Positions 20,653 to 49,515 of a stretch of DNA of 64,000 nucleotides are shown piece after piece. The position numbers were made by a program, and so were the translations under genes. Source of the stretch: Candidatus Babeliales bacterium (GTDB lineage: Bacteria > Babelota > Babeliae > Babelales > JANWKD01); contig OY969622.1 in NCBI GenBank assembly GCA_963701665.1, forward strand, positions 992,001 to 1,056,000, written 5' to 3'. Numbering within the stretch: position 1 is the stretch's first letter; every line of letters starts with the position of its first letter. The notes below the pieces were generated by a model. The model worked only from the letters and a program-made list of their open reading frames with translations. It was not told the origin of the DNA and did no database searches.

Positions 20653-21837
20653 TTGTATTATTTTAATGTCTTTAATCTTCTAGGAATAAGCCTCGTGGTT
20701 TGCATCATTAAGAAGTGTTCGGTTGTATTTTTATTATTATATAATTTCCCCTCCTATTGCGCTGAAAATAAGCCCAATACTGATCCTCTTGAAAAATTAG
20801 ATGAGTTACTTGCTCGAATCCCTACCGACGAATTTCTTCAACATATCACTGACCAAGAAAAGCGTAAGTTTCTTAAAGCTCTTTTTGAGTACAATAAAGA
20901 CACCGAAAATAGCCCAAAAAACTCAGAAGGCTCTTATCATTTTGAACCCCGACAGCCAGCCCCATTAACTAATGAACAAAAAACAATCCCTATTCATGAA
21001 AGAATTAAGAAGAAATTTATTGGCGATCTTCCCGGTAGAATTAATGATTTAATTTTCTATTTTAGCAATCAGGAGCTATGTCTAAAAAATAACAAATCAA
21101 TCTACAATAGAATTTTGCTTCATGGGCAACCTGGCACAGGAAAATCTCATCTGGTAAAAGTACTTGCTGAAGAATTACAAGTCCCCTATTTTTATTTTCC
21201 TGCCTCATTTTTTGCTGATAAATACATTGGCGAAACCTCGAAAAAAATTCGTGCCGCATTTGCTTGCGCAAAGAACCTCAAAAAACCTGTTATTATTTTT
21301 ATTGATGAGATAGATGGGCTTGCATCTAAAAGAAAAGATAATACACATGACGAACAACGTGCATCATTAGTAACGCTTTTAACTGAAATGCAAGATCTAC
21401 AGCAAAATAAAAATATTTTTATTTTCGTTGCGACTAATGATCTTAAAGCATTAGATCCAGCCATAAAAGATCGCTTTGCAGGCTCAATATGCGAAATTAA
21501 ACCTCTCACCTTAGAAGAAAGAGCCGCAATGTTTAAAAAAGCATTTAAAGAACATGGAATTACAATTGAAGATAATTTTGCAAAAAGGCTAGCTGAAGTT
21601 ACTAATACAACAACCAAGGATGAAGAAACAAAAAATAAAATTTTAAATTTTTCCAACAGAGACATTGAAAGTATAGCAACAACTGTTGCTTTTCGCCAAT
21701 TTGCAGAATGCCATAAAGATAAAGCGAATTGCAATAAACACCTCTGTCATTATGCTCGTAAGGTAATTGATGAAACAGGCAAAAAAGCTTCATTCACAAC
21801 ATTTCATATTAACTATGAGTTTTGTGAAGGAATTTAA
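20653..21837 (+). CDS. AAA+ ATPase (classical clade) with signal-peptide-like N-terminus; first gene of toxin-like locus 1
   Basis: GQPGTGKS Walker A, DKYIG pore loop, IFIDEID Walker B, ATND, DPAIKDRF, FSNRDI; start possibly GTG at 20695. Confidence 0.85.
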   Translation: MYYFNVFNLLGISLVVCIIKKCSVVFLLLYNFPSYCAENKPNTDPLEKLDELLARIPTDEFLQHITDQEKRKFLKALFEYNKDTENSPKNSEGSYHFEPRQPAPLTNEQKTIPIHERIKKKFIGDLPGRINDLIFYFSNQELCLKNNKSIYNRILLHGQPGTGKSHLVKVLAEELQVPYFYFPASFFADKYIGETSKKIRAAFACAKNLKKPVIIFIDEIDGLASKRKDNTHDEQRASLVTLLTEMQDLQQNKNIFIFVATNDLKALDPAIKDRFAGSICEIKPLTLEERAAMFKKAFKEHGITIEDNFAKRLAEVTNTTTKDEETKNKILNFSNRDIESIATTVAFRQFAECHKDKANCNKHLCHYARKVIDETGKKASFTTFHINYEFCEGI

Positions 21838-24577
21838 AACAAGCATTAAAATTTTATTCAATATATTTCTTCTTTTTTATTCGTTGAATAATTGGGCAAT
21901 GGATCAAAAGATTGAGCCATATTCATCATTTGAAGATTGGGGCTCTTCGGATGATTCGTCTAGCTCTTCGGATTCATCTAGCTCTAACGATGTTATTGCC
22001 ATTTCAAAATCATCAACAGAAACGGATGAATCATCTTACAAAGAATATATCCGCGAGTTCTATGAAAGCTCATCATATCAATATGTAGATTATGATGAAG
22101 AACATGCCTCGACGACAAACTCCCAAGCCCATTCCAACTCAAAATCAGATAGCCATACTGCTTCCAGCCAATCACATGCAATCCCAGTAATAGCATATCC
22201 AACCAATCAGCACCCTTCTTTTTCATCAAATAAAGAATCAACACGACACGCCAGAATGAGTCACCTCAATAATTCAGTAGGTACTTTCAGACGACGTTCA
22301 CAATATTATGCAGACAGAGATCTGGCTGTAAAAAGATACTTAGGCGTTCGCAATCAACTTAATGCAGAAGATCAAGAAAAATTTGCACATGAAAATAAAA
22401 ATCTTCATAAGCTTGCTATGAAACACCTTGAATATGAAAATCGTCCTTCTACTGGAGAACGAATAAAACAAGGATTTAAAGCACTAGGAGAAAATATATC
22501 AAGTACGAAGCAACGTATTGGTAGTTGGTGGCAAGGCTCGAGCAATAATAATGAAAACCAAAAGCACCAATCAACTACAAACGATTATAAAAGTGCCACT
22601 GCAGAACAAAATCGCAATGCACGATATAACGATTATAAGAACGCAAGCTTTGAACAACAAGGAAGTCTTAGCAAAAGACGGCGCGAGCAAGATTATAACA
22701 ATAGCATTCAAGAACAATTAAAGTTCATAGAAGAAGAGCCAACTAAAGATCTTAGATCTAGTGATAAAAGTCAAAATAAGCCTTTAACTAAACAAGAGCC
22801 TGAATTTCTGCAAGAACAAGCTCTTGGTGAAAAAGAACTTGAACAAAAAGCAGCCCAAGATCAGTTACGTTATGAAAAAGAGATTGAAAGACTCAATGAA
22901 AAATTTGAAATTGAACAATCTCAACACAGACTTGATGAAATAGGAAAATTAATCAAGTCTTTTGCTGAACGTCCTACCAATGAACTGCCTAAAATTGATG
23001 CGCCTAACTCCAGGCAAGACGTTTCTGATTATTACCTGGATGATTTAGATGATTTCTCATTCTCTGAAAATAACCAAGACGATCCATTCACGCATAAAGA
23101 ATGCGCTCTCGGACAAGATGAAAATTGGACTAAATCAAAGAATGTCAGCACTGAAGCATTATCTTCGGTCGTAAAAGATTTTGAAAAATCTGCTGTTGAT
23201 TTTCTAACAACTGGCCGACATGAATCAAAACATATTGACCCTAAAATAGTTAATGAAATTATTAATGATCCTGCAACACCAAAGAATATTGTTAAACTTT
23301 TAGAACACAATAATAGTTTACAAAACAGCACAAATAATAAAGAACTACGCGATTTATCAATCACCACAACTGAGCTTCTTGTTTATGCTGAAACTCTATC
23401 AAGAAAAATAGCTGAAGATGTTTATAAGACGTCTCAAGAAGAAGCAAGGTTAAATAATGCCATCAAAGATAAAATTATTGATGTTGCCACCAACATTGGA
23501 GAATATATTGACATTGCGCTAGAAGAATTAAAAGCAAGACGTAATGAAAATATTGAACGGCCAATTGAAGCAATTAAATCAAGTGTAGAAGCGGCAGGTC
23601 ATGTAGCCATGGAATGCGGTAAATTAGCTGTTTTACTTATCCCAACAGAACACATGCCTCTTTTAAAAAATCTATCTCCAGAAGATTCTTCAACGTTAGA
23701 AAAAAAATCTCTTGAAGAGATGAGTAAAATAATCCATACAGTTGAACAAAATTTTTCTGAATTTAAAAATCTTCCTCCACAAGAACAATTCAGATCTGCT
23801 GTACGAACTGTTCTCAACGCTGCCTCGCTGATTCTTGTAGCCAAAACTTGTTCGCAAGTACTAGCAACTTTACGAACAAGCGCCGCTCATGTAAATGATT
23901 TGAAAGGTGTTGCAACAACAGCTGAAGAAATGGCTACTCTTGAATCATCAGCTCAATTAATATCCCAAGAGCAAAAATTGGTTCACGCTGTTGAACAAGC
24001 TATTGAAAATAACCTCACGCAAGCATCTGAGCATATACCGGGAGCACCAAAATTTAATCAAAAAGATGCTTTAGCTAAAGAATTTGCAGAATCAGAAACA
24101 GGGAAAAAAATTGGCGCTAGACTAGAAAAATCTGCTTCTGAGAAAGCAAAACCTTCGGGCTCATCGGGTAACGCATCTCATTCTGCGGTGGAAGTAGAAA
24201 CTCCGGAAGCCATTAAGAATTTTAACCCTGCAAACCAAAATGCGATTAAAGAATTTCCCAAAGATCTTATTAAAAACTATAAAGACCATATTTTTTCAAA
24301 AAATCATAGAAGAGATGGAATTTTAAGGTTAGGAGCAAATGAATCTGAAATTATAAACAAAATTACGGATATAATATTAGAAACAGATCAGGTGGGATTA
24401 ATTAAACCAGCAGAGAAAAATGTCATTCTTACTGTTATTCAGGGTAAAGATGTTATTATTAGGGCTACATTAAATGAATCTGGTAAAATAATTAGTATGA
24501 ATGGTTATCTAAATACTTCTTCTACTATTCCAAGTAATGGTAATGTAGTTAGGTATATTTCGGAAAAATATAAATGA
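21815..24577 (+). CDS. Large exported protein with putative C-terminal toxin domain (BECR-RNase/Ntox35-like)
   Basis: Signal ending NWA-MDQ; low-complexity and coiled-coil body; linker then a ~100-aa tip DHIFSKNH...IQGKDVIIRATLNESGKIISMNGY; ATGA overlap with the next gene. Confidence 0.6.
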   Translation: MSFVKEFKTSIKILFNIFLLFYSLNNWAMDQKIEPYSSFEDWGSSDDSSSSSDSSSSNDVIAISKSSTETDESSYKEYIREFYESSSYQYVDYDEEHASTTNSQAHSNSKSDSHTASSQSHAIPVIAYPTNQHPSFSSNKESTRHARMSHLNNSVGTFRRRSQYYADRDLAVKRYLGVRNQLNAEDQEKFAHENKNLHKLAMKHLEYENRPSTGERIKQGFKALGENISSTKQRIGSWWQGSSNNNENQKHQSTTNDYKSATAEQNRNARYNDYKNASFEQQGSLSKRRREQDYNNSIQEQLKFIEEEPTKDLRSSDKSQNKPLTKQEPEFLQEQALGEKELEQKAAQDQLRYEKEIERLNEKFEIEQSQHRLDEIGKLIKSFAERPTNELPKIDAPNSRQDVSDYYLDDLDDFSFSENNQDDPFTHKECALGQDENWTKSKNVSTEALSSVVKDFEKSAVDFLTTGRHESKHIDPKIVNEIINDPATPKNIVKLLEHNNSLQNSTNNKELRDLSITTTELLVYAETLSRKIAEDVYKTSQEEARLNNAIKDKIIDVATNIGEYIDIALEELKARRNENIERPIEAIKSSVEAAGHVAMECGKLAVLLIPTEHMPLLKNLSPEDSSTLEKKSLEEMSKIIHTVEQNFSEFKNLPPQEQFRSAVRTVLNAASLILVAKTCSQVLATLRTSAAHVNDLKGVATTAEEMATLESSAQLISQEQKLVHAVEQAIENNLTQASEHIPGAPKFNQKDALAKEFAESETGKKIGARLEKSASEKAKPSGSSGNASHSAVEVETPEAIKNFNPANQNAIKEFPKDLIKNYKDHIFSKNHRRDGILRLGANESEIINKITDIILETDQVGLIKPAEKNVILTVIQGKDVIIRATLNESGKIISMNGYLNTSSTIPSNGNVVRYISEKYK

Positions 24578-25296
24578 ATAAAAATTTATTATTAAAAAAT
24601 ATTAATAAACAAATAGATCAATATAGAAAAAATAACTATGACATGACAACATTCAGTAATATACGAAAAACTTTTGATGAATATTTACATGTTCACCCAA
24701 AAGATACGGAAATTTGGCTGAGTTATGCTTTATGCATGTATAAATTAGCCGAAGGCAGTGATTATCCTGAAGAATGCTTAAGGAAAATATTAGAATACGA
24801 TCAAGACAATCTCTATGCTATAATGTTACTTGTCTATATTAATGCACACGATTCGTATATTAGTGACCAGCTTTTTAAACAGTTATGCAACTTAAAAAGC
24901 AATGACAATCAAATATTATCGATGATAGAATATGAAAAAATTTGGTACTATAAAGATGTTGAAAATTATGAAAGAGTATTAACTGATTCTGTTCAATTAT
25001 ATGATAAACATGTTTGGAATAATGTTAAATTGGGATATATTTATTTAGAAAAAGGAGAGATCAAAATAGGACAAGAATTAATATTAAAGGGGTTAAAAAA
25101 TGTTCAACTTGTTTATGATGATGATACTGTATATGACGAATTAAGTATCGAAGAATATTTTAACGAAACGATTAAAGGAATTCACTTAACAGATATCAAT
25201 TACAATTCTATTATTGATTCATTAGACCCAAATTATCTTAAGCCCATTATGGATTTGATTAATAGACATCTTGCTCGCAATTCATCTCAAGAATAA
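24574..25296 (+). CDS. TPR-like helical protein, candidate cognate immunity protein (copy A)
   Basis: Coupled to the toxin-like gene; no signal peptide; TPR-like pattern; paralogues downstream. Confidence 0.6.
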   Translation: MNKNLLLKNINKQIDQYRKNNYDMTTFSNIRKTFDEYLHVHPKDTEIWLSYALCMYKLAEGSDYPEECLRKILEYDQDNLYAIMLLVYINAHDSYISDQLFKQLCNLKSNDNQILSMIEYEKIWYYKDVENYERVLTDSVQLYDKHVWNNVKLGYIYLEKGEIKIGQELILKGLKNVQLVYDDDTVYDELSIEEYFNETIKGIHLTDINYNSIIDSLDPNYLKPIMDLINRHLARNSSQE

Positions 25297-26296
25297 TTTA
25301 AGAAAATGGGCTTATGCTGCTTCATACATCACTTTTACTATGTTAATTCATAAAGAATATTCTCAATATTTATATTTAATGATTAATAATTTTCCTATCA
25401 AATTACGCAACTATACCTTCGAATATCCTATTCCAATAAGAGTATGTGTTAAAAATTATGATAAATTCGAAGAAGTATTGGGTGATACAAAATATTTATA
25501 CATTAGTAAGGGCAGTCTTTCAGATACAACTGAATTAGTTGTCGATGATTATTCAAAAAAACTACTAATGTTACAAGTAATAGCCTCGAACCAAATTACC
25601 TTTCATGACCTTGATTTCGATATCGATAGTTATTTAAGCTATAATTCTTACATAGCCATAAATATTACAAATGATTCTTTTGAAAAATGGGAAAAATATC
25701 TTCCTGCATTAGATACCCAACCAAAAATACATGTTTTTAATAGCCTTATTGTATTAATAATAGATGAAAATAAATGCCCCGCTTATATGTTTTCAGAAAA
25801 TAATAAATTTGGCGTTATAACCAATAAAGACTTAAACATTGCGGCCTTTTTTATAAACAATATTACTGAAAAAGATAAAAAAATCATCAAAGAACATGCA
25901 AACTATCTTAATTCACCAAATCAAGAAAGTGCATTTCCCTTTAACAAATGCAAAACAACAATTATGGAACATAAAAATTATTTAATAAAAAAAATTATAG
26001 AGCTTGAAAATGTCAATTTATGGGATGTTATTTATTATGGTCTTGAACGAAAATTAATCAATAATAATTTTGTAATAGAATCTGCTATTGCTATGTTAGA
26101 GCATAATAAAACATCTGATAATATTACTCTTGAAATAGCAAGCCTGCTTAATCATGAATTAGAAAAAGTATCTATTTTACTCAACGAAAAAGTAAATAAA
26201 GATGAAGTTATGATTAATAAAGGACCTTTTTATAATAAAATTTGGTTATATCTTTCAGTTGCTTCAGATATGTGTGCAGCAAAAATTATCAAATAA
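25271..26296 (+). CDS. Hypothetical two-domain protein; C-terminal part DUF2247-like, immunity-type
   Basis: W.VIYYGL..KLI...FVI...A...LEIASL...KIWLYLS pattern; start uncertain. Confidence 0.5.
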   Translation: MLAIHLKNNLRKWAYAASYITFTMLIHKEYSQYLYLMINNFPIKLRNYTFEYPIPIRVCVKNYDKFEEVLGDTKYLYISKGSLSDTTELVVDDYSKKLLMLQVIASNQITFHDLDFDIDSYLSYNSYIAINITNDSFEKWEKYLPALDTQPKIHVFNSLIVLIIDENKCPAYMFSENNKFGVITNKDLNIAAFFINNITEKDKKIIKEHANYLNSPNQESAFPFNKCKTTIMEHKNYLIKKIIELENVNLWDVIYYGLERKLINNNFVIESAIAMLEHNKTSDNITLEIASLLNHELEKVSILLNEKVNKDEVMINKGPFYNKIWLYLSVASDMCAAKIIK

Positions 26297-26317
26297 AAAG
26301 AAATATTTTTATCAGAT

Positions 26318-27037
26318 ATGATAAACAAAGATCTATTGCTAAAAAATATAAGCTTACAAATGGATCAACATAAGAAAAATAATTATGACTTAACAACATT
26401 TATCACCATACAGAAAAGCTTTGATCAATATTTAAACCTTCATCCTTACGATACGGAAATTTGGCTAAAATATGCATTATGCATGTATGATTTAGCCGAA
26501 GGAAGTGATTATCCTGAAGAGTGCTTAAGAAAAATCTTAGAATATGATCAAAATAATCTCTCTGCTACGATGCTTTTAGTTTACATTAATGCGCATGATT
26601 CCCATATTAGTGATCAGCTTTTTAGGCAATTATGCGCCTTAAAAAGCGATGATAATGAAATACTATCAATGATTGAATATGAAAAAATTTGGTACTATAA
26701 AGATGATGAAAATTATGAGAAAGTATTAGTTAATTCGGTTAGATTGTGCAACAAACATGTTTGGAATAATGTTAATTTAGGAAGATTGTATATTACTAAG
26801 GGAGAATTTAAAAAAGGTCAAGAGCTAATATTAAAAGGATTAGAGAATATTAAGCTTATTTATAATAATGATACCATATACGATGAACTAAGCGTAGAAG
26901 AATACTTTAATGAAACAATCAAGGGAATTCATTTAAGTAGATCAAATTATAATTGTATTATTGGTTCATTAGATCCAAACTATTATAAACCAATCATGGA
27001 TCTAATTAACAAACATCTTAACCAATCCAAAGACTAA
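26318..27037 (+). CDS. TPR-like immunity paralogue (copy B)
   Basis: Aligns end to end with 24574-25296 (LAEGSDYPEECLRKILEYDQ, EEYFNETIKGIHL). Confidence 0.65.
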   Translation: MINKDLLLKNISLQMDQHKKNNYDLTTFITIQKSFDQYLNLHPYDTEIWLKYALCMYDLAEGSDYPEECLRKILEYDQNNLSATMLLVYINAHDSHISDQLFRQLCALKSDDNEILSMIEYEKIWYYKDDENYEKVLVNSVRLCNKHVWNNVNLGRLYITKGEFKKGQELILKGLENIKLIYNNDTIYDELSVEEYFNETIKGIHLSRSNYNCIIGSLDPNYYKPIMDLINKHLNQSKD

Positions 27038-27101
27038 TTTCTGATCTATAAAAAAAGAAAGCAGATCAGTTAGCATAAAAATCATCAAGGACTTTTTCAT
27101 A

Positions 27102-27830
27102 ATGAACAAAGATCCATTGTTAAAGAATATAAACTTACAAATGAAGCAATATAAAAAAAGCAATTATAATCCCTCTATATTTTTTAATATTCAAAAAACA
27201 TTTGATGAATATTTAAACGTCTATCCTAAAGATACGGACGTTTGGCTAAGTTATGCATTATGTATGTATAAATTGGCTGAAGGTGAAGATCTTGCCGAAA
27301 ATTGTTTAAAAAAGATATATGAATATGACAAAAGCAATGTTTATGCAACTATGTTGCATGCATATATAGCTGCTCATGATTCTCATATTGATGATGAATT
27401 ATTTGAAAAATTATGTAATGTAAAAACACACAACCTTGAATTACAATCAATGATTGAATATTTAAAAAGTTATTATTATTTCTTGAAAAATGATACCTTG
27501 AATGAAAAGGTATTACAAAATTCTGTTGCATTATGCGATAAACATGTTTGGAACCTTGTCAATTTAGGTAGAATTTATATAAAAAAAGGCGATTACAAAG
27601 AAGGGCAAAGATTAATCAAAAAAGCCCTATCGAACATCGAATATACTTATGATGAACATCCAATTGAAGATCAGTTAGATCTTAATGAGTATTTTAATGA
27701 AACTATTAAAGGAATTCACTTAACAGATAGTAACTACAATTCTATTATTGATTCACTTGATCCAGACTACCTTAAGCCAATCATGGATTTGATCAACAAA
27801 CATATGAATCTACCAAAAGATGAATTTTAA
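27102..27830 (+). CDS. TPR-like immunity paralogue (copy C)
   Basis: Aligns end to end with copies A and B; AAGGA RBS. Confidence 0.65.
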   Translation: MNKDPLLKNINLQMKQYKKSNYNPSIFFNIQKTFDEYLNVYPKDTDVWLSYALCMYKLAEGEDLAENCLKKIYEYDKSNVYATMLHAYIAAHDSHIDDELFEKLCNVKTHNLELQSMIEYLKSYYYFLKNDTLNEKVLQNSVALCDKHVWNLVNLGRIYIKKGDYKEGQRLIKKALSNIEYTYDEHPIEDQLDLNEYFNETIKGIHLTDSNYNSIIDSLDPDYLKPIMDLINKHMNLPKDEF

Positions 27831-27881
27831 ATAATGCATTAAAAAAATGAACGAGCAATATAAAGAAAAACTTAGATTTTT

Positions 27882-28430
27882 ATGCTGGTTTGCAAACAAG
27901 GCATAGATGAAAATAACACTGACCCAATTGATATCAACGTTGCTACTAATGACGATATGAAAAATAAAACAGAATGTAATCAATCTTTTTTTTCACATTC
28001 TGATTGTTTTAAGCGAAAATTGCATCAATATTTTAAAGGATACTTTATTGGAGGATTCGATTTTCGTTTATATGAAAATGACAACTTAATTATAAAAAAT
28101 AAGGATCATTTAATAAAAAAGATAACAGAACTCGAGAATGTTGATCCTTTGAAAGTCATTTATTATGGATTAACCTGAGAATTTATTAATTATCAATTTG
28201 TGCTAGAATATTGTTATTCGCTTATCGAAAAGACAAACCGTACACATCAATTTATCCTTGATATTGCTGCACTTTTCCAAGAAAACGACTTATATAATCT
28301 CCCCAAAAAGATTGCTGCAGAAATTACCCTTCCTCAAGATGTTGCAATTGATAGGGACCAATATTACGGGAAAATCTGGGCTTATCTTTCAGCTGCGGCT
28401 GAAATATGCTCAGAAAAAATTACTAAATAA
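27882..28430 (+). pseudogene. Interrupted paralogue of the C-terminal domain of 25271-26296
   Basis: LIKKITELENV..VIYYGLT*EFINYQFV...KIWAYLS; in-frame TGA at 28176-28178 aligns with CGA(Arg) in the intact copy. Confidence 0.7.
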
Positions 28431-28558: not shown

Positions 28559-29839
28559 ATGAAAAAGAAGCTTTATTCTATTATTCTATTTTTTCTAATG
28601 ACTTCTGCCTTCCCTGTAATGGCAGAAGGAACGGATCGGCCAAGATCTGACCAGGAAGAAACCTGGCTAACCATTATTATACATGGGATCTTGAATGCCA
28701 AGCCGCATATTTCTATTTCTAATATCATCCTGGTCCTTCGAGATCAACTTGAAAATACGATTTATGCCCACACCATTGATATTACGCGAAATGATCCCTT
28801 CTTTTATCAATATCACCCTATGCAAAAGCCAGGTTTACAAAAAATAGATTTTAATGATATCGGACCAGGCAAAGCAGCCACGGCATTTGCTCGGCTTTAT
28901 GATGAAATGAGTGCCCTAAACCAGAAAAAGCCGGTCAAAAACGTATATTATACCTTTGGTTGGACCGGCATATTAGGCATGAACGTACGTATCCTGGATG
29001 CCCAAATCTTTTATGACCAGCTGTTAACAGAGATCAATGCCTATAAAGCACAGGGCATTAATCCTAAAATTCGGATTATAGGCTACAGTCACGGCGCTCA
29101 TATTGCCCTCCATTTAGGAACTATTCATAAGCAACGCGCGCAAGAAAATTTACTTGATCCTATTGATCAAATAGTTTTATTGGGGCTACCTATTGTATGT
29201 GATATGGATTATTTGGTTCATAGTCCCTTATTTAAAAAGATTTATAACCTCTATTCGACTGGCGATAGGGTACAAATTGCTGATTTTATGTCCTATCAGA
29301 AGTTCTTATCATATCGAACCTTCAACGAACGCCCTACCTTTGAGGTCCCTGATAATCTTACGCAAGTCCAATTGCGCTGGAAACGGCTTGCACGCACAAG
29401 AAAAAAATATACCTATCCCTATTATCCAAAATGGCTTATTCGTAATTCTGATCCAGGACATAGTGAACTTTTTTCATTTGGCTGGATTTATAATTACCGA
29501 CAATATGTACCATTTTATCCAATGCCTATATGCTGCTATGTTGGTTACTTTTTGAATGCGGTTGAAAATAGCGATCTTAATGCAAACCATCTCTGTCTTG
29601 AAGTTCATCCTTTTGCTGAGACTATGTCGCTCAAAGCACAAACGGCAAGAAATGCATTAAACATGCCGTTCCTCACCTTTGAACAACAACAACATTTTGT
29701 GGATGTAACTAATTCATTTAGACCGGTGAATTTCAATCTCGCACTATTCAATGAACGTACGGCGCAGACAATTGAATTAGCAAAACAACGATTTGAAGAA
29801 CAAAATGCATGTCATTCTTTAGTTAAAACCTGCGAGTGA
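28559..29839 (+). CDS. Exported alpha/beta-hydrolase-like protein
   Basis: Signal peptide; IIIHG, FGWTG, IIGYSHGA nucleophile elbow, NLYS.GD.VQ, PGH. Confidence 0.7.
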   Translation: MKKKLYSIILFFLMTSAFPVMAEGTDRPRSDQEETWLTIIIHGILNAKPHISISNIILVLRDQLENTIYAHTIDITRNDPFFYQYHPMQKPGLQKIDFNDIGPGKAATAFARLYDEMSALNQKKPVKNVYYTFGWTGILGMNVRILDAQIFYDQLLTEINAYKAQGINPKIRIIGYSHGAHIALHLGTIHKQRAQENLLDPIDQIVLLGLPIVCDMDYLVHSPLFKKIYNLYSTGDRVQIADFMSYQKFLSYRTFNERPTFEVPDNLTQVQLRWKRLARTRKKYTYPYYPKWLIRNSDPGHSELFSFGWIYNYRQYVPFYPMPICCYVGYFLNAVENSDLNANHLCLEVHPFAETMSLKAQTARNALNMPFLTFEQQQHFVDVTNSFRPVNFNLALFNERTAQTIELAKQRFEEQNACHSLVKTCE

Positions 29840-30648
29840 TTCTCAAGAAGTTTTAGTATTGCTTGGTTACCTTTTCTATCCGCCAACTCACGCGGAGTAG
29901 CATATTCTTCAACATAATAGCCATTCATGCCTCGTTTATTTGAATAGGCAAAGCGTTGATCCGGATTTGCCCCATGAGCTAATAATATTTGTACTAAACC
30001 GGTATTTTCTTTTTCTATTCCTAACGCCAAACCTGTATATTCATCACCTAGAAAATTTCGATAGTATACCGCGTTAACATCTTCTCCATGGTTAAGACAA
30101 TATACTACCGTCTTTATATCCGGTATTGAAAGAGCATCTTGCAAAAACTCTCCTTTGGCACCTTGCACAAGAAAGTATGCATAATAAAACCGTGCCATAC
30201 AGGGATATCTGTATACATAGGAATCTTTTACATTGCCAGGTTTGTGAATGGCATGTGAAAAGGTCTGATTAGGAACCTTGGTAGTTGGATATAGCAATTT
30301 CTTAATAATTTCTTCCGGATAGAACCAAGGCATATTACTTTTTTTATATTTTTCGATTAATTTTTTTCGTATCGGTTTAGAGCTCGGCAAAAACTCAGAA
30401 AAAAATTGATAAGTTTCTTTATCAATATATCGAACCTTCGTGAGTGATAAAGCTGCCTCCTCTATATCCTTTGATTCATCGATGGTTATAACGATAATCT
30501 TTTCGAGTATTTCTGAAGGTAGTATATGTACAAAAGAATAGCCTAATCTTTTGGGATCTTCTTTCCATTCTTCCATCGAGTATGAGCACCAAGAAAATAA
30601 TAAGAACATGCAAGTAACTATTTTTTTATAAGCGGAACCTGTAAACAT
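29812..30648 (-). CDS. Exported ankyrin-repeat protein with F-box-like motif
   Basis: Signal ending SYS-MEE; ILPSEILEKII; LNHGEDVNA, LLAHGANPD, TPRELA. Confidence 0.75.
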   Translation of the reverse strand: MFTGSAYKKIVTCMFLLFSWCSYSMEEWKEDPKRLGYSFVHILPSEILEKIIVITIDESKDIEEAALSLTKVRYIDKETYQFFSEFLPSSKPIRKKLIEKYKKSNMPWFYPEEIIKKLLYPTTKVPNQTFSHAIHKPGNVKDSYVYRYPCMARFYYAYFLVQGAKGEFLQDALSIPDIKTVVYCLNHGEDVNAVYYRNFLGDEYTGLALGIEKENTGLVQILLAHGANPDQRFAYSNKRGMNGYYVEEYATPRELADRKGNQAILKLLENHSQVLTKE

Positions 30649-30690: not shown

Positions 30691-30779
30691 TTTAATGAAC
30701 GGCATAGACCGTTGAATTAGCAAAGCAAAGGTATGAAGAATAAAATGCATGTCATTCTTTGGCTAAGGCTCGTGAATGA
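30691..30779 (+). pseudogene. Decayed copy of the 3' end of the hydrolase gene 28559-29839
   Basis: A*TVELAKQRYEE*NACHSLAKARE* versus AQTIELAKQRFEEQNACHSLVKTCE*. Confidence 0.75.
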
Positions 30780-31579
30780 TTCTCAAGAAGTTCTATTATT
30801 TCTTGGTTACCTTTTCTATGCGCTAATTCACATGGCGTCATGTAATATTCAATGACATGACCTCCTATGCCTTCTTTCCTTTTTCGTTTAAGTTTCTTAT
30901 TGGGATCTGCATTACAAGCTAATAATTTTTTTACTAAATCAACATTATCGAAATCAATGGCCTTCGTTAACGGTGTCCATTGCTGATCCATCTTATTATT
31001 GTGCCAATATACACAAAGTATATTAGCATTCGCCCCATGATTGAGACAAAATACCGCTGTTTTTGAATCATTTTTTTCATTAGCTATTTCAAAAAAGTTA
31101 TTTTTATTATCATCGCGTACATAAGGATAAAAGAAACGAGCAATATTTGGAGAATGCTGCCGATATGCTGCTTGCGCAAGATTAATAACCATCGATAAAG
31201 TACTCGTAGGGCATAAAAACTTTGTAGCGAGGTTACTTGCAAGTTTGGGCAAATAAAGATCTCTTTCTAGTTTCTTCACGAGCTTTTTTTGTATTTCATT
31301 TGAAAATGCTTCCTGCGCCAAGGAACTTTTTATAGCATTAGATGTTTCCCGGTCGACATATTCGAAGGATTTTAATGATTTAAAAGCAATGTCGCTAGTT
31401 TCAGATTCATCAACAAGCGCCAAAACAACTTTTTCTAATATTTCTGGCGGCAAAATTTGCGCAAATGAACAATTTAATGTGCCCGGATTTTCTTTTCCCC
31501 ATTCTTCCATAGAATATGAACACCAGAAAAACAAAAAAAGAAAATATATTGATAATTTTTTATGATAAAACGTAATCAT
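30752..31579 (-). CDS. Exported ankyrin-repeat protein, tandem paralogue of 29812-30648
   Basis: WCSYSMEEW shared; ILPPEILEKVV; TPLTKAI, NADPN, TPCELA. Confidence 0.75.
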   Translation of the reverse strand: MITFYHKKLSIYFLFLFFWCSYSMEEWGKENPGTLNCSFAQILPPEILEKVVLALVDESETSDIAFKSLKSFEYVDRETSNAIKSSLAQEAFSNEIQKKLVKKLERDLYLPKLASNLATKFLCPTSTLSMVINLAQAAYRQHSPNIARFFYPYVRDDNKNNFFEIANEKNDSKTAVFCLNHGANANILCVYWHNNKMDQQWTPLTKAIDFDNVDLVKKLLACNADPNKKLKRKRKEGIGGHVIEYYMTPCELAHRKGNQEIIELLENHSRALAKE

Positions 31580-43142: not shown

Positions 43143-44531
43143 ATGCAGCTTCAAACTCTTCTTAATTCCAAAAACACCGATACACCATTAGCTTTAACAT
43201 TTTTATTCCGCGCCACCTTAGTTTTCAGCTTGTGGTGTAGTGCAACATACTGCATGGAAGACCCGCTTAATGTAAAACAGAAATTACCAACAGGTTCTAA
43301 TAAAAATTCTGGTATCAAAAAAGAACTTATAGGTCTAATACAAAGTTTAAAACAGGAACAAAATGGCCTTATAGGCTCAGCTCAATTTGGTGTTGAAAGG
43401 GAAGAAGATCAAGAACCTTTAAGAAGTGAATTGGTTGAAGAACTCATTAATGAAAGCCCTCATCGAATAAAAAAACTTATTAGTGATATCAATAAAAGAC
43501 AAAATCCTGACGATTTATTTCAGAAAGCTCCTTATATGAGCAATATACATGTTTTAGTCGGTTCTCCAGGAACTGGTAAAAGCAGTCTAGCAAAGGCTAT
43601 TGCAAAAAAATGTTCTATACCTTACCTTTTTGTCGCGATTCAATTGTTATCAAATCAATATCAGCATTCTGGCTCAAGCAATCTTGCAAGTATTCTTGGC
43701 CCCTTATCAAGGAGTAAAAAGCCCGAGGTAATTATACTGGATGAGCTACAGACAATTGTCAAAAAAAGAGGTAAAGAAGATTACGATATGGAAGGCGCTC
43801 AATCATTGTGGAAATTCCTTGATACTTTTAAAAACAAAAAAAATTTATTAATCATCGCCACTGCAAATGATCTTGATATTTTACCTGATCAAGTCCGTAG
43901 TCGCATCAAAGTAGGAATACACGACATAAGTCTTCCCGATCAATCTAAAAGAGAAAAAATTATTTCTTATTATTTACATCTTTATTCGCCTTCCTTGCAA
44001 GCTGTTCCCTCACCATCTGAAATTCAGTTTTTAGGATATAAAACCAAAAAATTCACACCGCGTGACTTAGAAACCATGATACGAGCCGCATTATCCAATG
44101 CTCACGACCGTTCAGGCGATGAAATTTTAGTTCTTGATAAAAAAGACTTTGATGCCGCTATTGCACTGGTAACAAAAGATGATGAAAGATTTTCAATCTC
44201 TAAAAGAACTTACAAAATGATTAAGCCACATATAGGAACTACTATTCAAATTATGGGCCCACTAACCATACAAATAATAGTCAATAGTTTTATGCAATAT
44301 TGCGGCATGAATCAACAAGTCCTGTTTCATAACGAAAGCATAGGGTTGCAAAGAGAGGGATTAGACTTACAAAAGAAAAGCTTTGCACAACAAGAGAGAT
44401 TCCACAATGAAAACAAAAATCTCACCTTGGAACATTTCAGAACACAGCTCATATGTCAAATTGTAGGCAATATACCTGGAGCTATTTATCATTGGTATTA
44501 TGGTAGTTCCACTCAACCAAAACCCCAATAA
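43143..44531 (+). CDS. AAA+ ATPase with signal-peptide-like N-terminus and C-terminal hydrophobic/coiled-coil tail; first gene of toxin-like locus 2
   Basis: Signal ending TYC-MED; GSPGTGKS, IILDELQ, ATAND, VRSRI, FTPRDL. Confidence 0.85.
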   Translation: MQLQTLLNSKNTDTPLALTFLFRATLVFSLWCSATYCMEDPLNVKQKLPTGSNKNSGIKKELIGLIQSLKQEQNGLIGSAQFGVEREEDQEPLRSELVEELINESPHRIKKLISDINKRQNPDDLFQKAPYMSNIHVLVGSPGTGKSSLAKAIAKKCSIPYLFVAIQLLSNQYQHSGSSNLASILGPLSRSKKPEVIILDELQTIVKKRGKEDYDMEGAQSLWKFLDTFKNKKNLLIIATANDLDILPDQVRSRIKVGIHDISLPDQSKREKIISYYLHLYSPSLQAVPSPSEIQFLGYKTKKFTPRDLETMIRAALSNAHDRSGDEILVLDKKDFDAAIALVTKDDERFSISKRTYKMIKPHIGTTIQIMGPLTIQIIVNSFMQYCGMNQQVLFHNESIGLQREGLDLQKKSFAQQERFHNENKNLTLEHFRTQLICQIVGNIPGAIYHWYYGSSTQPKPQ

Positions 44532-44543
44532 CCAAAATTACTC

Positions 44544-47500
44544 TTGAATACATATTTTATGAAAACATTCAAACTATATTCTATCTTTGCCATTTTTGCG
44601 TATCTAACCTCAACTGCCATGGATAACAAAATAGTTATCCATGGACCTACTTACGATACTGATAATGAACAAAGAAAATTCATTACTCCTTTTCAACGAA
44701 ATACCGCAGCAAATTTTATTCCGCCTGAAAGAGATATTATTGCTATCCCAACATCATCCAAAATCAATACGGCACTTTCAGCAATACAGTGCATAGCATC
44801 ATTAGAACAGGCACATTTAGAACAACAATTTAATACGTGTGTTGATATATTAAGCCAAGCAAATCTTTCCGAGTCAATAAGTGCTATTTTATCTCTTGGT
44901 GATCTTCAATTTCAACGGTGCAACATACTTGATGAATCTTCTGTTGAATATCAGTATTATTTGAAAACAACAATTAATGACCTCAATTATATTCTATATG
45001 ATAAAACAGGCTCTCTTCAATTAACATCAATACCTTCTCAGCAATATGACTCTGCAAAAGTAATAACCGATGACTTTTTAAAACCATTACGGCCAGACGA
45101 TTATAAAGAAATTGTAGAAAAGCTTGCTTTGTTAAATCGACCAGGATTTGCAGAAGTTCATCAAGAACTGACACAAGGAGGTATACGGCCATACTTCCGC
45201 GCATTAGGTAGAGGAATTTCTGCATGTTTCTCTTATCAAGAATCATCTGATAGGTTGAGAAAACTCATCAATGGCAATGATGTTAGAAAAGATCTTATAA
45301 AAATTAAGGAATATGGAGAACAATTCAAATTTTTGCAAGCAAAGGCTATTGTTGAAAAATATGATAATGCTCAATCATCAAGTGATAAAAAAATAGCTGA
45401 TATTGCTCAACAACTTTATCTTGAATATATAGACAAGACATATGATCTTTTGATCGAGAGACTTCACTTAACACCATCACAAGAATTAAAACAAGAATTA
45501 CGTGACCTCATACCTTATATAGTTGAAAAACCCGCAAAAGCAGCCGAACTCTTTTATGAAAAATTAGAACAATACAAAAATAATGAAAAACAATATGGAC
45601 TTTTACAACAGCTCATCAATAAGGTTGGATTACCTAAATTTTATAGCTATGATCGTACATGTTTAAATGCTATCGAAATTCCCACTACTATTCGTGATAG
45701 CAATCACATCAAAGAACAACAAACATTATTTTCACTTGCGACATGTCCCACACATGACAAAGAAGCCCTTGCTTTAGGAATGAGATATGTTGTTAGATCA
45801 TGCCAAACCGAATCATCATTATACACTCATTATGCCAAAGCACTGCTTCATAGCGTTCAATCAAAAGATCCCGATACGAAACTTTTGAAATGTACCGATT
45901 TTACTCAAACATTTGACGTCAAAGCAAAACAGGATATGATCCGTCGAATGATTCCTGCCATCTGCAACATAACAAATGAGATTAACCAACTCAAACAGCA
46001 ACCAGGATCAGAAGAACGCATTAAGCAATTACAATCACTACGAACAACACTACATGATGCATTCCAAGCTTTGGATGATACAGCATCGAAACGAATATCA
46101 TTTAATAAGGTAATAAGTGAGGCAATACGCGAACTCAATGTACTTAATCGTTCGGAGATGATCCTCACAAAATCACAAGAAGATCTGCGTGCTTTACTGC
46201 AAAGCGTTGACCTTCTTTATACAGGAAAAACAGAAACACATAATCTTCAAGTATTGCAAAAATTACAACCTCAATCTAGCCATGCTCAACCTGATTTAAG
46301 CAAAACCTATGAGCAGTATTTGATGCGGGAGACACTTGATAATAAAGATTTATGGACTGAGGCGAATGACTCTCTGCGCAATGAGGTTATTAAGCACTAT
46401 ATAGCATCATCACAAGATGAGGCTCTCCAAGAAATAGAAACAATTATTTTAAATCGTGATACCAATTGCACCATAGCTAAAAATATTTTTACTGTTATTC
46501 AAGATAGCGCTACAATAATCGCAACTGATTTTCCTCTCAAAGAAATTGGTGATTATGCTCATGAAACGATTACTCATCCAACAGCATATTTATTAAATAT
46601 CGCAAAAGATTTTGCACAACTAGGTCATTTTCTGAAATCATTTGTTTCTGATTATGCAAAAAATAATATCGCTTCTTTAGGTGCAAGCAAAAAAGATGCT
46701 TATGAATTTAGCAAAAAATATAATGAGGCTGTTCATAAATTTGCTGAAGGCTGGAAAAACTTAAGCCTAGAGCATAAAAAGGAATTTGTAGCAAAGCTAA
46801 TCGTTGATCTTGCTGCAAATAAAGCATTAGGCATTGGCGCTAAACTTATCAGCAACATTATGGGAGACTGCATCATATCATTTGTTGATACACTTCCCCC
46901 TTCAATTTCAGGTGGCGGTGCAGTCGCTATTACACGAGATATCGCTTTAATGCCTGAACTTGTCGCAGAAGTAGCGGAAGTTATTCAAGCAGGTGGGGCA
47001 GCTGTTGGGTCAACGTCAGTGGCAGTTGGTTCAACAGGAATACAAGGTATAGTTACATTGTATGAGACAACCCCAGGTAAAAATAGCAAATCATCAAAAA
47101 TAATACCCCAAGGCTCATATGAATTGCCTATTGAAAAATTCAAAGCATATACAACGATTGTTGAAGATGGTAATCCCAAAATTATTGAAAGTACCTTTAG
47201 TACTGAAGAAGCATTAGAAATTTTGAATAATTCTTCGGAATTAAAAATGTTAAATTCTCGAATCGAAGAATTAAAGAAAGCAACACAGGATATCAGATTC
47301 GGAATTTCAGATGAGAGATTCAAAGATGTCCCAAAATTATATGAAAAAGCAATGCATCAAGCTGAACAATTATATGAAAGAGCAAGAAAAAATAATAACG
47401 ATATTCAAAAAATTGCCTACAATATTGGTATATCTGAAAAAGTAATAGAAAAAATTAAAAATCATATTTTTATTGAAGAACATATTCTCGGTCATGGCAA

Positions 47501-47708
47501 CGAACAATTTTTATCAAAATTTTTGACTGATATTGATATTGCCGAAAGTTGGGAACGACTTATAAATGGTAATTTTGTACAATCAGATTTGATTTTGTTA
47601 CAGCACGAATTAACCGAATCACTCCTGATGCAAGGAACAAAATTAAATTATGGTTCTGCTCATTATAAAATCGTAAATAAAATATTTAATTGGAATGCTA
47701 CCTTGTAA
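44544..47708 (+). CDS. Large exported protein with putative C-terminal toxin domain
   Basis: Signal ending STA-MDN; Gly/Ala-rich hydrophobic stretch then tip Y..R..DI.KIA.N.G.S..I.KIK.H.F...H...F..D..IA.SW.RL..G...D..LL.HE..E...Y..AH...NW, a pattern I recall from Rhs/MuF-type toxin C-termini. Confidence 0.65.
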   Translation: MNTYFMKTFKLYSIFAIFAYLTSTAMDNKIVIHGPTYDTDNEQRKFITPFQRNTAANFIPPERDIIAIPTSSKINTALSAIQCIASLEQAHLEQQFNTCVDILSQANLSESISAILSLGDLQFQRCNILDESSVEYQYYLKTTINDLNYILYDKTGSLQLTSIPSQQYDSAKVITDDFLKPLRPDDYKEIVEKLALLNRPGFAEVHQELTQGGIRPYFRALGRGISACFSYQESSDRLRKLINGNDVRKDLIKIKEYGEQFKFLQAKAIVEKYDNAQSSSDKKIADIAQQLYLEYIDKTYDLLIERLHLTPSQELKQELRDLIPYIVEKPAKAAELFYEKLEQYKNNEKQYGLLQQLINKVGLPKFYSYDRTCLNAIEIPTTIRDSNHIKEQQTLFSLATCPTHDKEALALGMRYVVRSCQTESSLYTHYAKALLHSVQSKDPDTKLLKCTDFTQTFDVKAKQDMIRRMIPAICNITNEINQLKQQPGSEERIKQLQSLRTTLHDAFQALDDTASKRISFNKVISEAIRELNVLNRSEMILTKSQEDLRALLQSVDLLYTGKTETHNLQVLQKLQPQSSHAQPDLSKTYEQYLMRETLDNKDLWTEANDSLRNEVIKHYIASSQDEALQEIETIILNRDTNCTIAKNIFTVIQDSATIIATDFPLKEIGDYAHETITHPTAYLLNIAKDFAQLGHFLKSFVSDYAKNNIASLGASKKDAYEFSKKYNEAVHKFAEGWKNLSLEHKKEFVAKLIVDLAANKALGIGAKLISNIMGDCIISFVDTLPPSISGGGAVAITRDIALMPELVAEVAEVIQAGGAAVGSTSVAVGSTGIQGIVTLYETTPGKNSKSSKIIPQGSYELPIEKFKAYTTIVEDGNPKIIESTFSTEEALEILNNSSELKMLNSRIEELKKATQDIRFGISDERFKDVPKLYEKAMHQAEQLYERARKNNNDIQKIAYNIGISEKVIEKIKNHIFIEEHILGHGNEQFLSKFLTDIDIAESWERLINGNFVQSDLILLQHELTESLLMQGTKLNYGSAHYKIVNKIFNWNATL

Positions 47709-47719
47709 TTGGAGTTAAT

Positions 47720-48031
47720 ATGGGAAAAGGAATAGATATCATAAAATATAAAAGCTCAAATAATATTCATTATTACTATATAGCATTTGGTGATTTAATT
47801 CCTGTGTTTTATATAGCCATTAATCCCATTAAAAATACTGTTTCATTTTTTAAAGATAATGATTTTGCTCAAGAACCAATAGGGATCATTGATTTTAACA
47901 ATCCAGATCCTTTTAAATCGATACCAAAAATTCCTGATGTACACAAAAATTATATTTTAATGACAATTACTAGGGCGCGTTTAGCGATAAACAAAGGAGA
48001 ATTTCATGATTATATCGGCTTTTCAAGTTAA
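47720..48031 (+). CDS. Small protein, candidate cognate immunity protein
   Basis: GGAG RBS, ATG 11 nt after the toxin-like stop, 103 aa, no signal peptide, very AT-rich. Confidence 0.55.
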   Translation: MGKGIDIIKYKSSNNIHYYYIAFGDLIPVFYIAINPIKNTVSFFKDNDFAQEPIGIIDFNNPDPFKSIPKIPDVHKNYILMTITRARLAINKGEFHDYIGFSS

Positions 48032-49092: not shown

Positions 49093-49515
49093 ATGGAAAC
49101 CCAACATTATGTTACTGAAACAATTAAACCTCATACTTATCATTGGACCATAACAATCACCGCACTTATATTCTTGATAAGCTTGTTATATTTTATTTTT
49201 CAATTTTTTCCAACCTATTATCATTTACGCTTAGTTTTTAAAACAGCCGAATATAATTTTACTCTTGGCAATTATACAGAAGCAATAAAAGGATATACCC
49301 TCATTTTAAAAAATTTTAACAGCTTTAAAATGGCAAAAATAAAAAAGGTACAAGGATACTTTCCATTAGGCAAAAAACAAAAAGCGCTAAAATTACTATC
49401 TAATATGGAACTAACTCATAATGATTTAGAGTTATTAAAAAAATATATACCATTTGATTGTCAACATCATTTTCAACCAAAAACGAACATCATAGGATAT
49501 AAAGTCATATGCTAG
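49093..49515 (+). CDS. Single-TM protein with TPR-like motif
   Basis: N-terminal TM; AEYNFTLGNYTEAIKGY. Confidence 0.6.
   Translation: METQHYVTETIKPHTYHWTITITALIFLISLLYFIFQFFPTYYHLRLVFKTAEYNFTLGNYTEAIKGYTLILKNFNSFKMAKIKKVQGYFPLGKKQKALKLLSNMELTHNDLELLKKYIPFDCQHHFQPKTNIIGYKVIC

Follow-up and report, generated by a model that had tools for sequence, protein, structure and literature searches.

An AAA+ ATPase as the predicted partner of polymorphic toxins in a Babeliales (Dependentiae) bacterium

To characterise a candidate toxin locus in Candidatus Babeliales bacterium we analysed a 64,000-nucleotide (nt) stretch of its DNA, referred to here as the window, which covers bases 992001-1056000 of a genome consisting of a single contig of 1.337 Mb with 37% GC. 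The window contains two loci, locus 1 and locus 2, and the same genome contains a third (genome 575513-580070), which judged from their sequences are three-module polymorphic toxin systems of this Babeliales (Dependentiae) energy parasite. The three modules are an AAA+ ATPase, a large carrier-toxin and immunity proteins. We consider it probable, at roughly 60%, that the ATPase is exported together with the carrier as its accessory and that the whole system is directed against rival bacteria. The arrangement is not a matter of chance, because the same gene order recurs at the third locus and in many relatives. The loci, genomes and proteins of relatives gathered by sequence searches carry labels beginning with L, G and P, respectively, and the coordinates of all features are given in Table 1.

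The original prediction for locus 1, made from the letters of the window and its open reading frames (ORFs), had named an exported AAA+ ATPase, a large toxin-like protein and a set of immunity genes; the ORF and Pfam scans found every one of these elements where it had been placed. The ATG of the carrier-toxin gene BIG1, said to encode 920 aa and to overlap the ATPase gene AAA1, does fall 23 nt within the 3' end of AAA1, and the claimed ATGA coupling is present as an overlap of the BIG1 stop with the next start at 24574-24577. The sole full-length relative of BIG1, P0002 (locus L107, 40% identity), aligns with it from Met17 and includes the signal region, so the likely start is the ATG at 21815, which yields the 920-aa protein. 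BIG1 begins with a signal-like N-terminus and continues with a helical body that is Ser-rich and coiled; a Ser/Gly linker then leads to its C-terminal Ntox35 domain, whose motif HIFSKNH comes after the linker sequence ...PSGSSGNAS... A search with the whole of BIG1 among 5.8 billion proteins returned only the protein itself (P0001), and a hidden Markov model of the BIG1 body found no further member among the ORFs of the gathered loci; the partners of the AAA1 orthologues in G014 and G002 are therefore different proteins. As had been stated, no Rhs, haemagglutinin, LXG, PAAR or VgrG delivery domain was detected by Pfam (E <= 0.1) in BIG1 or in BIG2, the carrier of locus 2.

The C-terminal tip of BIG1 had been guessed to be a ribonuclease (RNase) of the BECR/Ntox35 type, a guess borne out by a Pfam score above the cut-off, by the homologues and by a conserved pair of histidines. 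Pfam places Ntox35 (PF15534) on residues 836-914 of the BIG1 ORF with an E-value of 7e-5 and a score of 23.9 bits, against a cut-off of 23.6, and the orthologue P0002 scores 35.5 bits. When the last 137 aa of BIG1 were searched against 1.84 billion representatives, 99 matches were obtained at E <= 0.001, 9 of them at <= 1e-10; the match was always C-terminal, in proteins ranging from 61 to 2569 aa. Fifty-eight of these 99 homologues were scanned with Pfam, and Ntox35 was found in 40 (E <= 0.001; 35 above the cut-off) and not in the remaining 18, while the other domains comprised RHS repeats (4), PT-HINT (2) and PT-TG (1). In an alignment of 43 tip sequences (A3) the motif DHIFSKNH contains an invariant H42 and an H48 present in at least 90% of the rows, and these two residues, the histidines of DHIF and KNH, six residues apart, form the predicted catalytic pair. 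For Ntox35 a BECR fold has been predicted and the motif 'H, KH' described (PMC3482391), and the histidines of the BIG1 tip fit this signature. Their spacing equals that of H199 and H205 in the Ntox35 toxin of S. aureus, in which the exchange H205A abolished killing (10.1101/2025.07.24.666436).

From the same alignment the tip was modelled with AlphaFold2 (AF2) at a confidence (predicted local distance difference test, pLDDT) of 89.5 as N-terminal helices followed by a four-stranded sheet. Foldseek returned no match to this model in the PDB at E <= 0.001. With VIA-align, the five best matches were all CdiA-CT RNases: 8ey4_A (Z 5.3, root-mean-square deviation 3.8, 80 residues aligned), 6cp9_A (5.2), 7m5f_C (4.7), 7vmc_B (4.6) and 6cp8_B (4.3); RelE, ParE, YafQ and BrnT toxins ranked after them. 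As these Z scores of 4.3-5.3 are under the caution line of the tool, the evidence from the fold is consistent with Ntox35 but weak. We concluded from sequence that the BIG1 tip is an Ntox35 RNase domain whose predicted catalytic residues are intact.

The signal-less protein encoded directly after BIG1 had been proposed as its cognate immunity protein, and both gene neighbourhoods and a model of the complex argue for this. The gathered loci contain 12 ORFs with an Ntox35 tip, carried by four unrelated kinds of protein (BIG1-type, BIG2-type, giants of 1782-2584 aa and short orphans), and the directly following gene encodes a member of the tetratricopeptide repeat (TPR)-like family in 10 of the 12, the exceptions being L053 and one orphan in L063. 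For the complex of the tip with the 24574-25296 protein, the three runs gave ipSAE values of 0.92, 0.02 and 0.91 (median 0.91) and the best control 0.07; among solved complexes 116 of 157 attain this mark, among mismatched pairs 2 of 215. The pLDDT of the partner was at least 82, and the runs agreed in at least 1% of contacts. The modelled interface comprises residues 39-51 of the tip and covers the surroundings of both histidines. On the strength of this model and of the gene order, we concluded that the TPR-like protein is the predicted cognate immunity of the Ntox35 tip. Its family has 16 members among the 5.8 billion proteins, one named as a tetratricopeptide repeat protein and none as an immunity protein, and the part of the 2012 catalogue of polymorphic toxins that deals with Ntox35 gives it no immunity partner (PMC3482391).

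The genes further downstream had been described as an array of immunity genes, and this description proved apt: they comprise TPR-like paralogues and genes of Imm38, a family identical with DUF2247 that occurs in heterogeneous polyimmunity loci (PMC3482391). The DUF2247 (PF10004) match of the 25271-26296 protein scores 31.6 bits against a cut-off of 25 and spans only positions 11-87 of the 158 in the profile, and the full-length DUF2247 protein of the third locus scores 96.2 bits. The two fragments of the broken gene, 27882-28178 and 28200-28430, align to residues 228-258 and 270-341, respectively, of the 341-aa protein, and their DUF2247 match is weak. Full-length DUF2247 genes were found directly 3' of tips of the type carried by BIG3, the toxin of the third locus, in 3/3 loci (L001, L051 and L058); since DUF2247 thus goes with the BIG3-type tip, the DUF2247 genes of locus 1 are best read as spare immunities. 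Orphan cassettes were also found in relatives, namely Ntox35 tips in L063 and an EndoU fragment in L057. The GC content at 24-28 kb of the window, where the immunity array lies, is 0.27-0.28, versus 0.29-0.43 elsewhere in the window.

The same three-part order had been claimed for 43143-48031 with a different tip and a different small partner, and AAA2, BIG2 and a 113-aa ORF were indeed found there. The tip of BIG2 comprises approximately residues 871-1054 (nt 47154-47705). The Pfam scan assigned no family to BIG2 or to the 113-aa ORF at 47690-48031; a homologue of this ORF (E 1e-8) is an orphan within the immunity region of L064. An atlas search offered Pyocin_S for the BIG2 tip as a lead at 0.88, which we did not trust, and otherwise returned unnamed clusters. 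The BIG2 body is 76% identical to that of P0021 over 431 residues, the two being nearly letter-identical up to a Gly-rich hydrophobic stretch, past which they diverge into different tips. This pattern, as read from the sequences, is the classical picture of recombination. The BIG2 body is also 25-35% identical to those of BIG3 (28%), P0095, P0007 and P0018, and P0021, P0095, P0007 and P0018 all end in Ntox35. A comparison of the BIG1 and BIG2 families by hhalign matched only the tips (97.9%), the bodies being unrelated, and BLAST likewise showed no similarity of BIG2 to the BIG1 body. In the BIG2/BIG3 family the N-terminal part of the toxin contains a conserved stretch (...IIIVNSH...). An AF2 model of the BIG2 body, built from an alignment of 20 rows, was all-helical with a pLDDT of 54, too poor for a fold search.

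A profile of body plus tip matched 33 of the 261 genomes of the order, which in the collection used represents the whole phylum. EndoU tips were found on members of the body family in L052 (8e-15), L057 (3e-10) and L060 (2e-4, below the cut-off), and on large AAA-linked proteins without detectable body similarity in L091 (1.2e-9) and L104 (1.4e-4, below the cut-off). CdiI_ImmP immunity genes follow body-family members in L055 (1e-32) and L061 (7.6e-27). Because relatives carry Ntox35, EndoU or other tips with matching immunities, this second body family is, judged from sequence, a true polymorphic toxin. The polymorphic toxin signature that the original prediction had recognised is thus present as a constant body with exchangeable tips, tip-matched immunity genes and orphan cassettes. 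In one relative, G003, the two contig ends L062 (G003:C1:1-12000) and L111 (G003:C1:1410000-1418565) bear identical toxin-immunity genes that are inverted relative to each other; either an inverted repeat or an artefact of assembly lies behind this, and the region upstream of that toxin is masked by it.

AAA1 had been described as a classical-clade AAA+ protein with a signal-like N-terminus, and its Pfam match (PF00004, E 1.7e-32), its p97/Cdc48-type relatives and its hydrophobic start all agree with this. Its nearest solved relatives are p97/Cdc48, VAT, Rix7, i-AAA and PAN, that is, the classical clade, and it has Walker A (GQPGTGKS) and Walker B (VIIFIDE) motifs and the canonical pore-loop motif KYIGE, the last of which an orthologue shares. 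Orthologues of AAA1 were found in G014 (54% identity), in G002 (58%, the N-terminus being lost at a contig end) and in L107, with clear signal-like starts. In AAA2, Walker A and B are intact and the pore-loop region reads NQYQHSG; both Walker motifs were found by pattern in 26 of the 29 AAAs checked. Three other assignments for the ATPase were set aside: an IteA anti-phage ATPase (NCBIfam IteA_antiphage, 88.7 bits for AAA1, far under the cut-off of 510), an EccA-like role in type VII secretion (a sub-threshold NCBIfam match of 18 bits), and a loading ATPase of the type found with extracellular contractile injection systems or Photorhabdus virulence cassettes, an idea dropped without a search for sheath or tube genes.

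That the AAA+ protein is a dedicated partner of the toxin had been suggested from the two loci of the window, and its linkage in relatives makes it a conserved one. Eighteen loci of the BIG2-type body family were collected with the toxin profile, independently of the AAA, and two more lie at contig ends where the linkage could not be evaluated. An AAA gene stands directly upstream on the same strand in 14 of the 18, with 1-2 small genes intervening in three. In the AAA1 clade, the next gene encodes a large signal-bearing protein in 5/5 cases (the window, G014, G002 and twice in L107), and the first of the two tandem pairs in L107, a metagenome contig, repeats the order AAA1, BIG1, TPR-like, DUF2247 exactly. 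Giant Ntox35 toxins with other bodies are accompanied by an AAA in 0/4 loci. These three counts tie the AAA to the carrier; the immunity, for its part, is matched to the tip. The coding regions of AAA and toxin also overlap in L014, L051, L058, L060, L061, L107 and L110 (4-86 nt), as they do by 23 nt in the window.

A tree of 73 AAA ORFs, each of at most 720 aa, was built with FastTree, and linkage labels were assigned to it by hand from the gene maps, an AAA being labelled 'Tox' when one of the next two genes downstream encoded a protein with a signal and a length of 570 aa or more, with small ORFs after it. The linked AAAs were confined to two clades, one with 27 rows of which 19 are linked (support 93), the other the AAA1 clade (3/3, support 100), with 0/43 elsewhere. 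The label requires 8 changes on this tree versus 19.1 for shuffled labels (0 of 500 shuffles as low); because the sampling was done partly via toxins, these numbers describe clustering and not frequency. We concluded from these sequences that the phylum has a large superfamily of signal-bearing single-domain AAAs, two clades of which are predicted toxin partners. In L053, L085 and L091, and also in L073 and L093, two different AAAs of the toxin-linked clade stand in tandem 5' of one toxin, which suggests mixed rings.

A fifth signal-bearing AAA of the genome, 564 aa long, is encoded at 57952-59646 on the minus strand. Its ATAD3_N domain (PF12037, E 2.1e-6, above the cut-off) is succeeded by a membrane helix and, at the C-terminus, by the AAA domain, so that it is laid out like ATAD3 of eukaryotic mitochondria; the ATAD3-like clade to which it belongs has 18 rows, spread over the order. 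On the same strand (50630-57934) come next seven tandem paralogous signal-bearing genes, of which the one scanned with Pfam, 56921-57934, contains ankyrin repeats.

The export of the AAA is proposed from its conserved signal-like N-terminus as read by eye. In the toxin-linked AAAs with a readable N-terminus, a basic n-region is followed by a hydrophobic core and then by small residues, after which Met-Asp/Glu often comes; the h-regions are 10-16 residues long, with small residues at -1/-3 and acidic residues after them. Signal-like ends of this form, a small residue followed by Met-Asp or Met-Glu (WA/MDQK, TA/MDNK and SYS/MEEW, the slash marking the junction), occur in toxins, AAAs and ankyrin proteins alike, and Met-first junctions are found for example at 21815, 44559, 29812-30648 (minus strand), 30752-31579 (minus strand) and 57952-59646 (minus strand). 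The Met after the signal-like stretch could also be a second start site. In the G001 orthologue of AAA3, the ATPase of the third locus, the signal-like frame is conserved though no ATG, GTG or TTG precedes it. In AAA1-4 the signal is not separated from the AAA domain by a membrane helix, and a signal-like start is absent from the Lon-like protein of the genome. Since the signal-like start of the AAAs is of the same kind as those of the toxins and ankyrin effectors, we take the AAA to be co-exported. A signal on an AAA of the Dependentiae is not new in itself, because AAA-peptidase fusions bearing one have been reported from Babela massiliensis. With regard to the supply of ATP, the genome encodes four TLC ATP/ADP translocases and two secretins; given the translocases, we infer that host ATP must cross the periplasm. 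A crude in-house rule for signals flagged 507 of the 976 ORFs of the genome and was dropped as non-discriminating.

Taken together, the modules suggest the following mechanism. The toxin would be exported by Sec, leave the cell and enter a competing bacterium, where its Ntox35 tip would cut RNA, while the immunity proteins would shield kin. The AAA+ protein, co-exported as a dedicated accessory of the carrier, would use ATP outside the cytoplasm of this ATP-importing parasite and would act on the helical carrier by remodelling or unfolding it, be it for release, for crossing of the outer barrier or for activation. Its role would by analogy parallel that of the secreted S8 peptidase, which activates BetaH-toxins in S8-type systems. 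The spare immunities and orphan cassettes, typical of such conflict, speak for an attack on rival bacteria. A broader proposal is that Babeliales have evolved Sec-exported AAA+ motors that operate beyond the cytoplasm of the bacterium, either in its periplasm or in the cytosol of the host, on the same host ATP that these parasites import through their translocases, and that two clades of them are dedicated to unfolding, releasing or driving large polymorphic toxins towards rivals; it is a tentative one that we regard as possible, with the odds against it.

Several observations weigh against the proposed mechanism. The toxicity, RNase activity, ATPase activity, localisation and expression of the parts are all predicted. 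The gene call P0001 begins BIG1 at the Met after the signal, the Pfam match of BIG1 to Ntox35 is marginal, all fold matches of the tip have Z <= 5.3, and one of the three runs of the complex model gave 0.02. In the clade of AAA2-4 the pore loop reads Y/F-x-N/H-S-G instead of the canonical aromatic-hydrophobic-Gly, and caution is therefore needed in assuming threading. A signal-like start is weak evidence, because 44% of the coding sequences of a related genome have a predicted signal peptide (PMC6561590) and more than half of the ORFs of the present genome were flagged by the crude rule. Four of the 18 body loci (L052, L056, L059 and L108) have no AAA. The expectation that AAA homologues be followed by large variable-tip proteins held in the close clades and failed in the wider superfamily, loci picked by AAA1 similarity alone being toxin-linked in only 4/43 (52 AAA ORFs). 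The AAAs may not be toxin-specific, since AAA4 and the ATAD3-like AAA precede ankyrin genes. The interpretation offered by the original prediction stood in part, namely for the polymorphic toxin, the tip, the immunity and its array, the lack of a known delivery domain and the linkage of the AAA; the export of the AAA, its action as unfoldase or delivery partner and a contest inside a shared host cell stand as predictions.

These points leave room for other explanations. The AAA might stay in the cytoplasm at the inner membrane, by way of an uncleaved anchor or an internal Met, and act before export as an unfoldase that strips the immunity protein from the toxin and feeds the toxin to Sec. ATP is certain to be present there, the tip and its cytoplasmic immunity protein would need separating ahead of Sec export, and a like preparation of substrates is known for the ATPases of other secretion systems. 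The Met after the signal is a possible second start, as in the call of P0001, the G001 orthologue of AAA3 lacks ATG, GTG or TTG before its signal-like frame, and the membrane helix between signal and AAA in the ATAD3-like paralogue would leave its AAA domain in the cytoplasm. We nevertheless consider this explanation rather unlikely, as the n-h-c N-termini appear by eye to be oriented so as to export the domain that follows, the G001 frame is conserved even without a canonical start, and AAA1-4 have no membrane helix ahead of the AAA domain. A cytoplasmic toxin-antitoxin or anti-virus module, in which the signal-like N-termini would be untranslated AT-rich read-through, seems highly improbable. 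The sub-threshold IteA_antiphage match of AAA1 (88.7 bits, cut-off 510) and the omission of the BIG1 signal by the gene caller speak for it, but that match is far under its cut-off, the signal region of BIG1 is conserved as protein in P0002 from Met17, frames of 20-45 codons are open 5' of the Met in nearly all members in DNA of approximately 33% GC, and the tip family also occurs on RHS, PT-HINT and PT-TG toxins.

It is also conceivable that the AAAs are independent effectors directed at amoebae, which lie beside the toxins through the clustering of fast-evolving secreted genes, and that the RNases are perhaps aimed at the host as well, the immunities serving for self-protection. Babela massiliensis has 9 signal-bearing AAA-peptidase fusions that have been interpreted as secreted into its amoeba (PMC4378268), the AAA superfamily is large and mostly unlinked to toxins, AAA4 and the ATAD3-like AAA lie before signal-bearing ankyrin genes, and intracellular bacteria often turn toxin domains on their host (PMC3482391). 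Against this stands the linkage itself: with approximately 5-14 AAA matches per genome and about 1100 genes per genome assumed, adjacency on the same strand by chance would be well below 1/100 per locus, whereas 14/18 was observed; moreover, AAA and toxin genes overlap, and in the various families of the order the AAA keeps to the carrier. Conflict between bacteria has its signature in spare paralogues of the immunity and in orphan cassettes of tip or immunity, and host-directed toxins of intracellular bacteria are as a rule not accompanied by immunity genes (PMC3482391). We therefore judge an origin of the AAAs as separate host effectors to be improbable, and retain the co-exported AAA as accessory of a toxin aimed at rival bacteria.

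Table 1. Features of the toxin loci, with positions in the window unless marked as genome or L001 coordinates
Feature	Position	Strand	Basis
AAA1, single-domain classical AAA+ ATPase, 394-aa ORF	20653..21837	+	PF00004 E 1.7e-32
BIG1, 920-aa carrier-toxin, predicted secreted	21815..24577 (ORF opens 21767)	+	P0002 alignment, Ntox35 tip
Predicted Ntox35 (BECR-type RNase) toxin domain of BIG1	24272..24508	+	Pfam PF15534, conserved His pair
TPR-like 240-aa protein, signal-less, predicted cognate immunity	24574..25296	+	ATGA coupling, homologue positions, complex model
341-aa protein, C-terminal Imm38/DUF2247, candidate spare (orphan) immunity	25271..26296	+	PF10004 E 1.6e-7
Second TPR-like immunity paralogue (putative), 75% identity to 24574-25296 protein	26318..27037	+	sequence comparison
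Third TPR-like immunity paralogue (putative), 63% identity to 24574-25296 protein	27102..27830	+	sequence comparison
Broken second DUF2247-type gene, ORF fragments 27882-28178 and 28200-28430	27882..28430	+	homology
AAA2, signal-bearing AAA+, 462 aa, hydrophobic C-terminal segments	43143..44531	+	PF00004 E 1.7e-24
BIG2, 1054-aa carrier-toxin of the second body family, predicted secreted	44544..47708	+	body similarity
113-aa signal-less ORF, candidate immunity of BIG2 tip	47690..48031	+	position
AAA3, 538 aa, third locus	genome 575513-580070 (third system)		sequence searches of the same genome
BIG3, 793-aa toxin with a body of the BIG2 type and a distinct tip	genome 577158-579539		body similarity
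Full-length Imm38/DUF2247, 174 aa, 3' of BIG3	L001:7546-8070		Pfam E 2e-27
AAA4 (416 aa), then 557-aa signal-bearing ankyrin protein	within genome 575513-581524 (L001:3514-11229), after Imm38		gene map

Some neighbouring genes deserve mention. Divergent from AAA1, an 893-aa membrane protein (17683-20364, minus strand) is a possible regulator of the locus; of the Sigma-54 interaction domain it contains the C-terminal part only (E 1.4e-10), its C-terminal tail resembles a helix-turn-helix, and L107 has a 900-aa counterpart in the same position with, by eye, a similar N-terminus. Past the immunity array of locus 1 lies the gene of a 426-aa protein that bears a signal and matches lipase-3 weakly (28559-29839, plus strand, E 0.013). 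Locus 2 is followed by a 313-aa WD40 propeller (48149-49090, plus strand) and by a pair of genes (49093-50036, plus strand) for two membrane proteins, one of them multi-pass, 175 aa long and with the HExxH motif HEIGHRFF, the other of 140 aa; Pfam assigned a family to neither. The pair is single-copy and is found also at L051:7105-8066, L058:4838-5844 and L107:10079-10968; it adjoins toxin loci in 4/4 cases, an association that is biased because the loci were chosen for toxins. In one genus, a conserved signal-bearing protein of approximately 183 aa with no Pfam family (L054:6478-7029, L108:4309-4860 and L109:1655-2209) is encoded between AAA and toxin; in L108 it precedes the toxin without an AAA.

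Polymorphic toxins, Ntox35 and Imm38 are already known; new are the two carrier families, the TPR-like immunity of Ntox35, the conserved AAA+ partner and the occurrence in Dependentiae. Full-text searches brought up no paper on polymorphic toxins in Dependentiae, nor one that combines effectors, an ATPase and a secretion system with Babeliales, and among the matches listed for AAA+-linked polymorphic toxins none dealt with such systems by title and abstract. The predicted systems would add to the polymorphic toxins a class distinguished by its dedicated AAA+ partner and by carriers of two new families, and would provide Ntox35 with the cognate immunity family left blank in the 2012 catalogue. 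Genomes of about 1.3 Mb from obligate intracellular parasites keep several predicted cassettes of bacterial warfare, which implies frequent co-infection and competition. An AAA that does work outside the cytoplasm would be at odds with the textbook picture of a periplasm without ATP-driven machines. It would then represent a new ATP-powered class of delivery and a rare extracytoplasmic bacterial AAA+ machine, and would offer a testable model for the exit of toxins and effectors from cells on whose toxins none of the specialised delivery domains was found.

Among known systems, the Sec-dependent toxins of the type II secretion system ('T2SS') or MafB type (PMC3482391) share with the present ones a signal peptide, a variable nuclease tip, downstream immunity and poly-immunity loci. 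The catalogue that describes them, Zhang et al. 2012, differs in the portions relevant here in that its entry for Ntox35 immunity is blank where we find the TPR-like family, in that it names no AAA+-linked class of toxins, and in that Dependentiae are absent from the lineages listed with Ntox35 (PMC3482391); Odyssella appears in it as a rare intracellular bacterium with toxin and immunity. The AAAs of Babela massiliensis (PMC4378268) likewise come from Dependentiae, have atypical predicted signal peptides and are thought to be secreted; unlike the single AAA domains found here beside a toxin, they are fused to a permuted Ulp1-like peptidase and have been read as host effectors. Two classical toxin-antitoxin pairs are also mentioned for that species (PMC4378268).

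The CdiA-CT/CdiI systems provide the nearest solved folds of the tip, and CdiI_ImmP genes follow two members of the carrier family, but components such as haemagglutinin/filamentous haemagglutinin domains, two-partner secretion domains or CdiB were not found by Pfam in BIG1 or BIG2. AAA+ proteins that act on a protein so that it crosses a membrane include HSP101 of the Plasmodium translocon of exported proteins (PTEX) and FtsH in the import of nuclease colicins, and HSP101 is itself exported by the parasite. These belong to unrelated subfamilies and organisms, so that the comparison is an analogy only.

The S8-type polymorphic toxin systems (S8-PTS; PMC9424270, 10.1101/2025.07.24.666436) resemble the present loci in combining an accessory enzyme with a Sec signal, a toxin with a Sec signal, a conserved N-terminal module and a variable tip, and a cytosolic immunity protein. 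The toxin tested from S. aureus even has an Ntox35 domain with two histidines six residues apart, and its immunity protein is modelled as blocking the active site. The accessory there is an S8 peptidase and here an AAA+ ATPase, which in contrast would need ATP outside the cytoplasm; a Pfam scan of 12 window proteins revealed no peptidase family. The carriers there have BetaH, whereas here they are helical bodies of 600-900 aa in two new families, and S8-PTS belong to Gram-positives, whereas the host here is a diderm obligate intracellular parasite. By analogy of their parts, the S8-PTS appear to be the closest analogue of the three-module systems described here.

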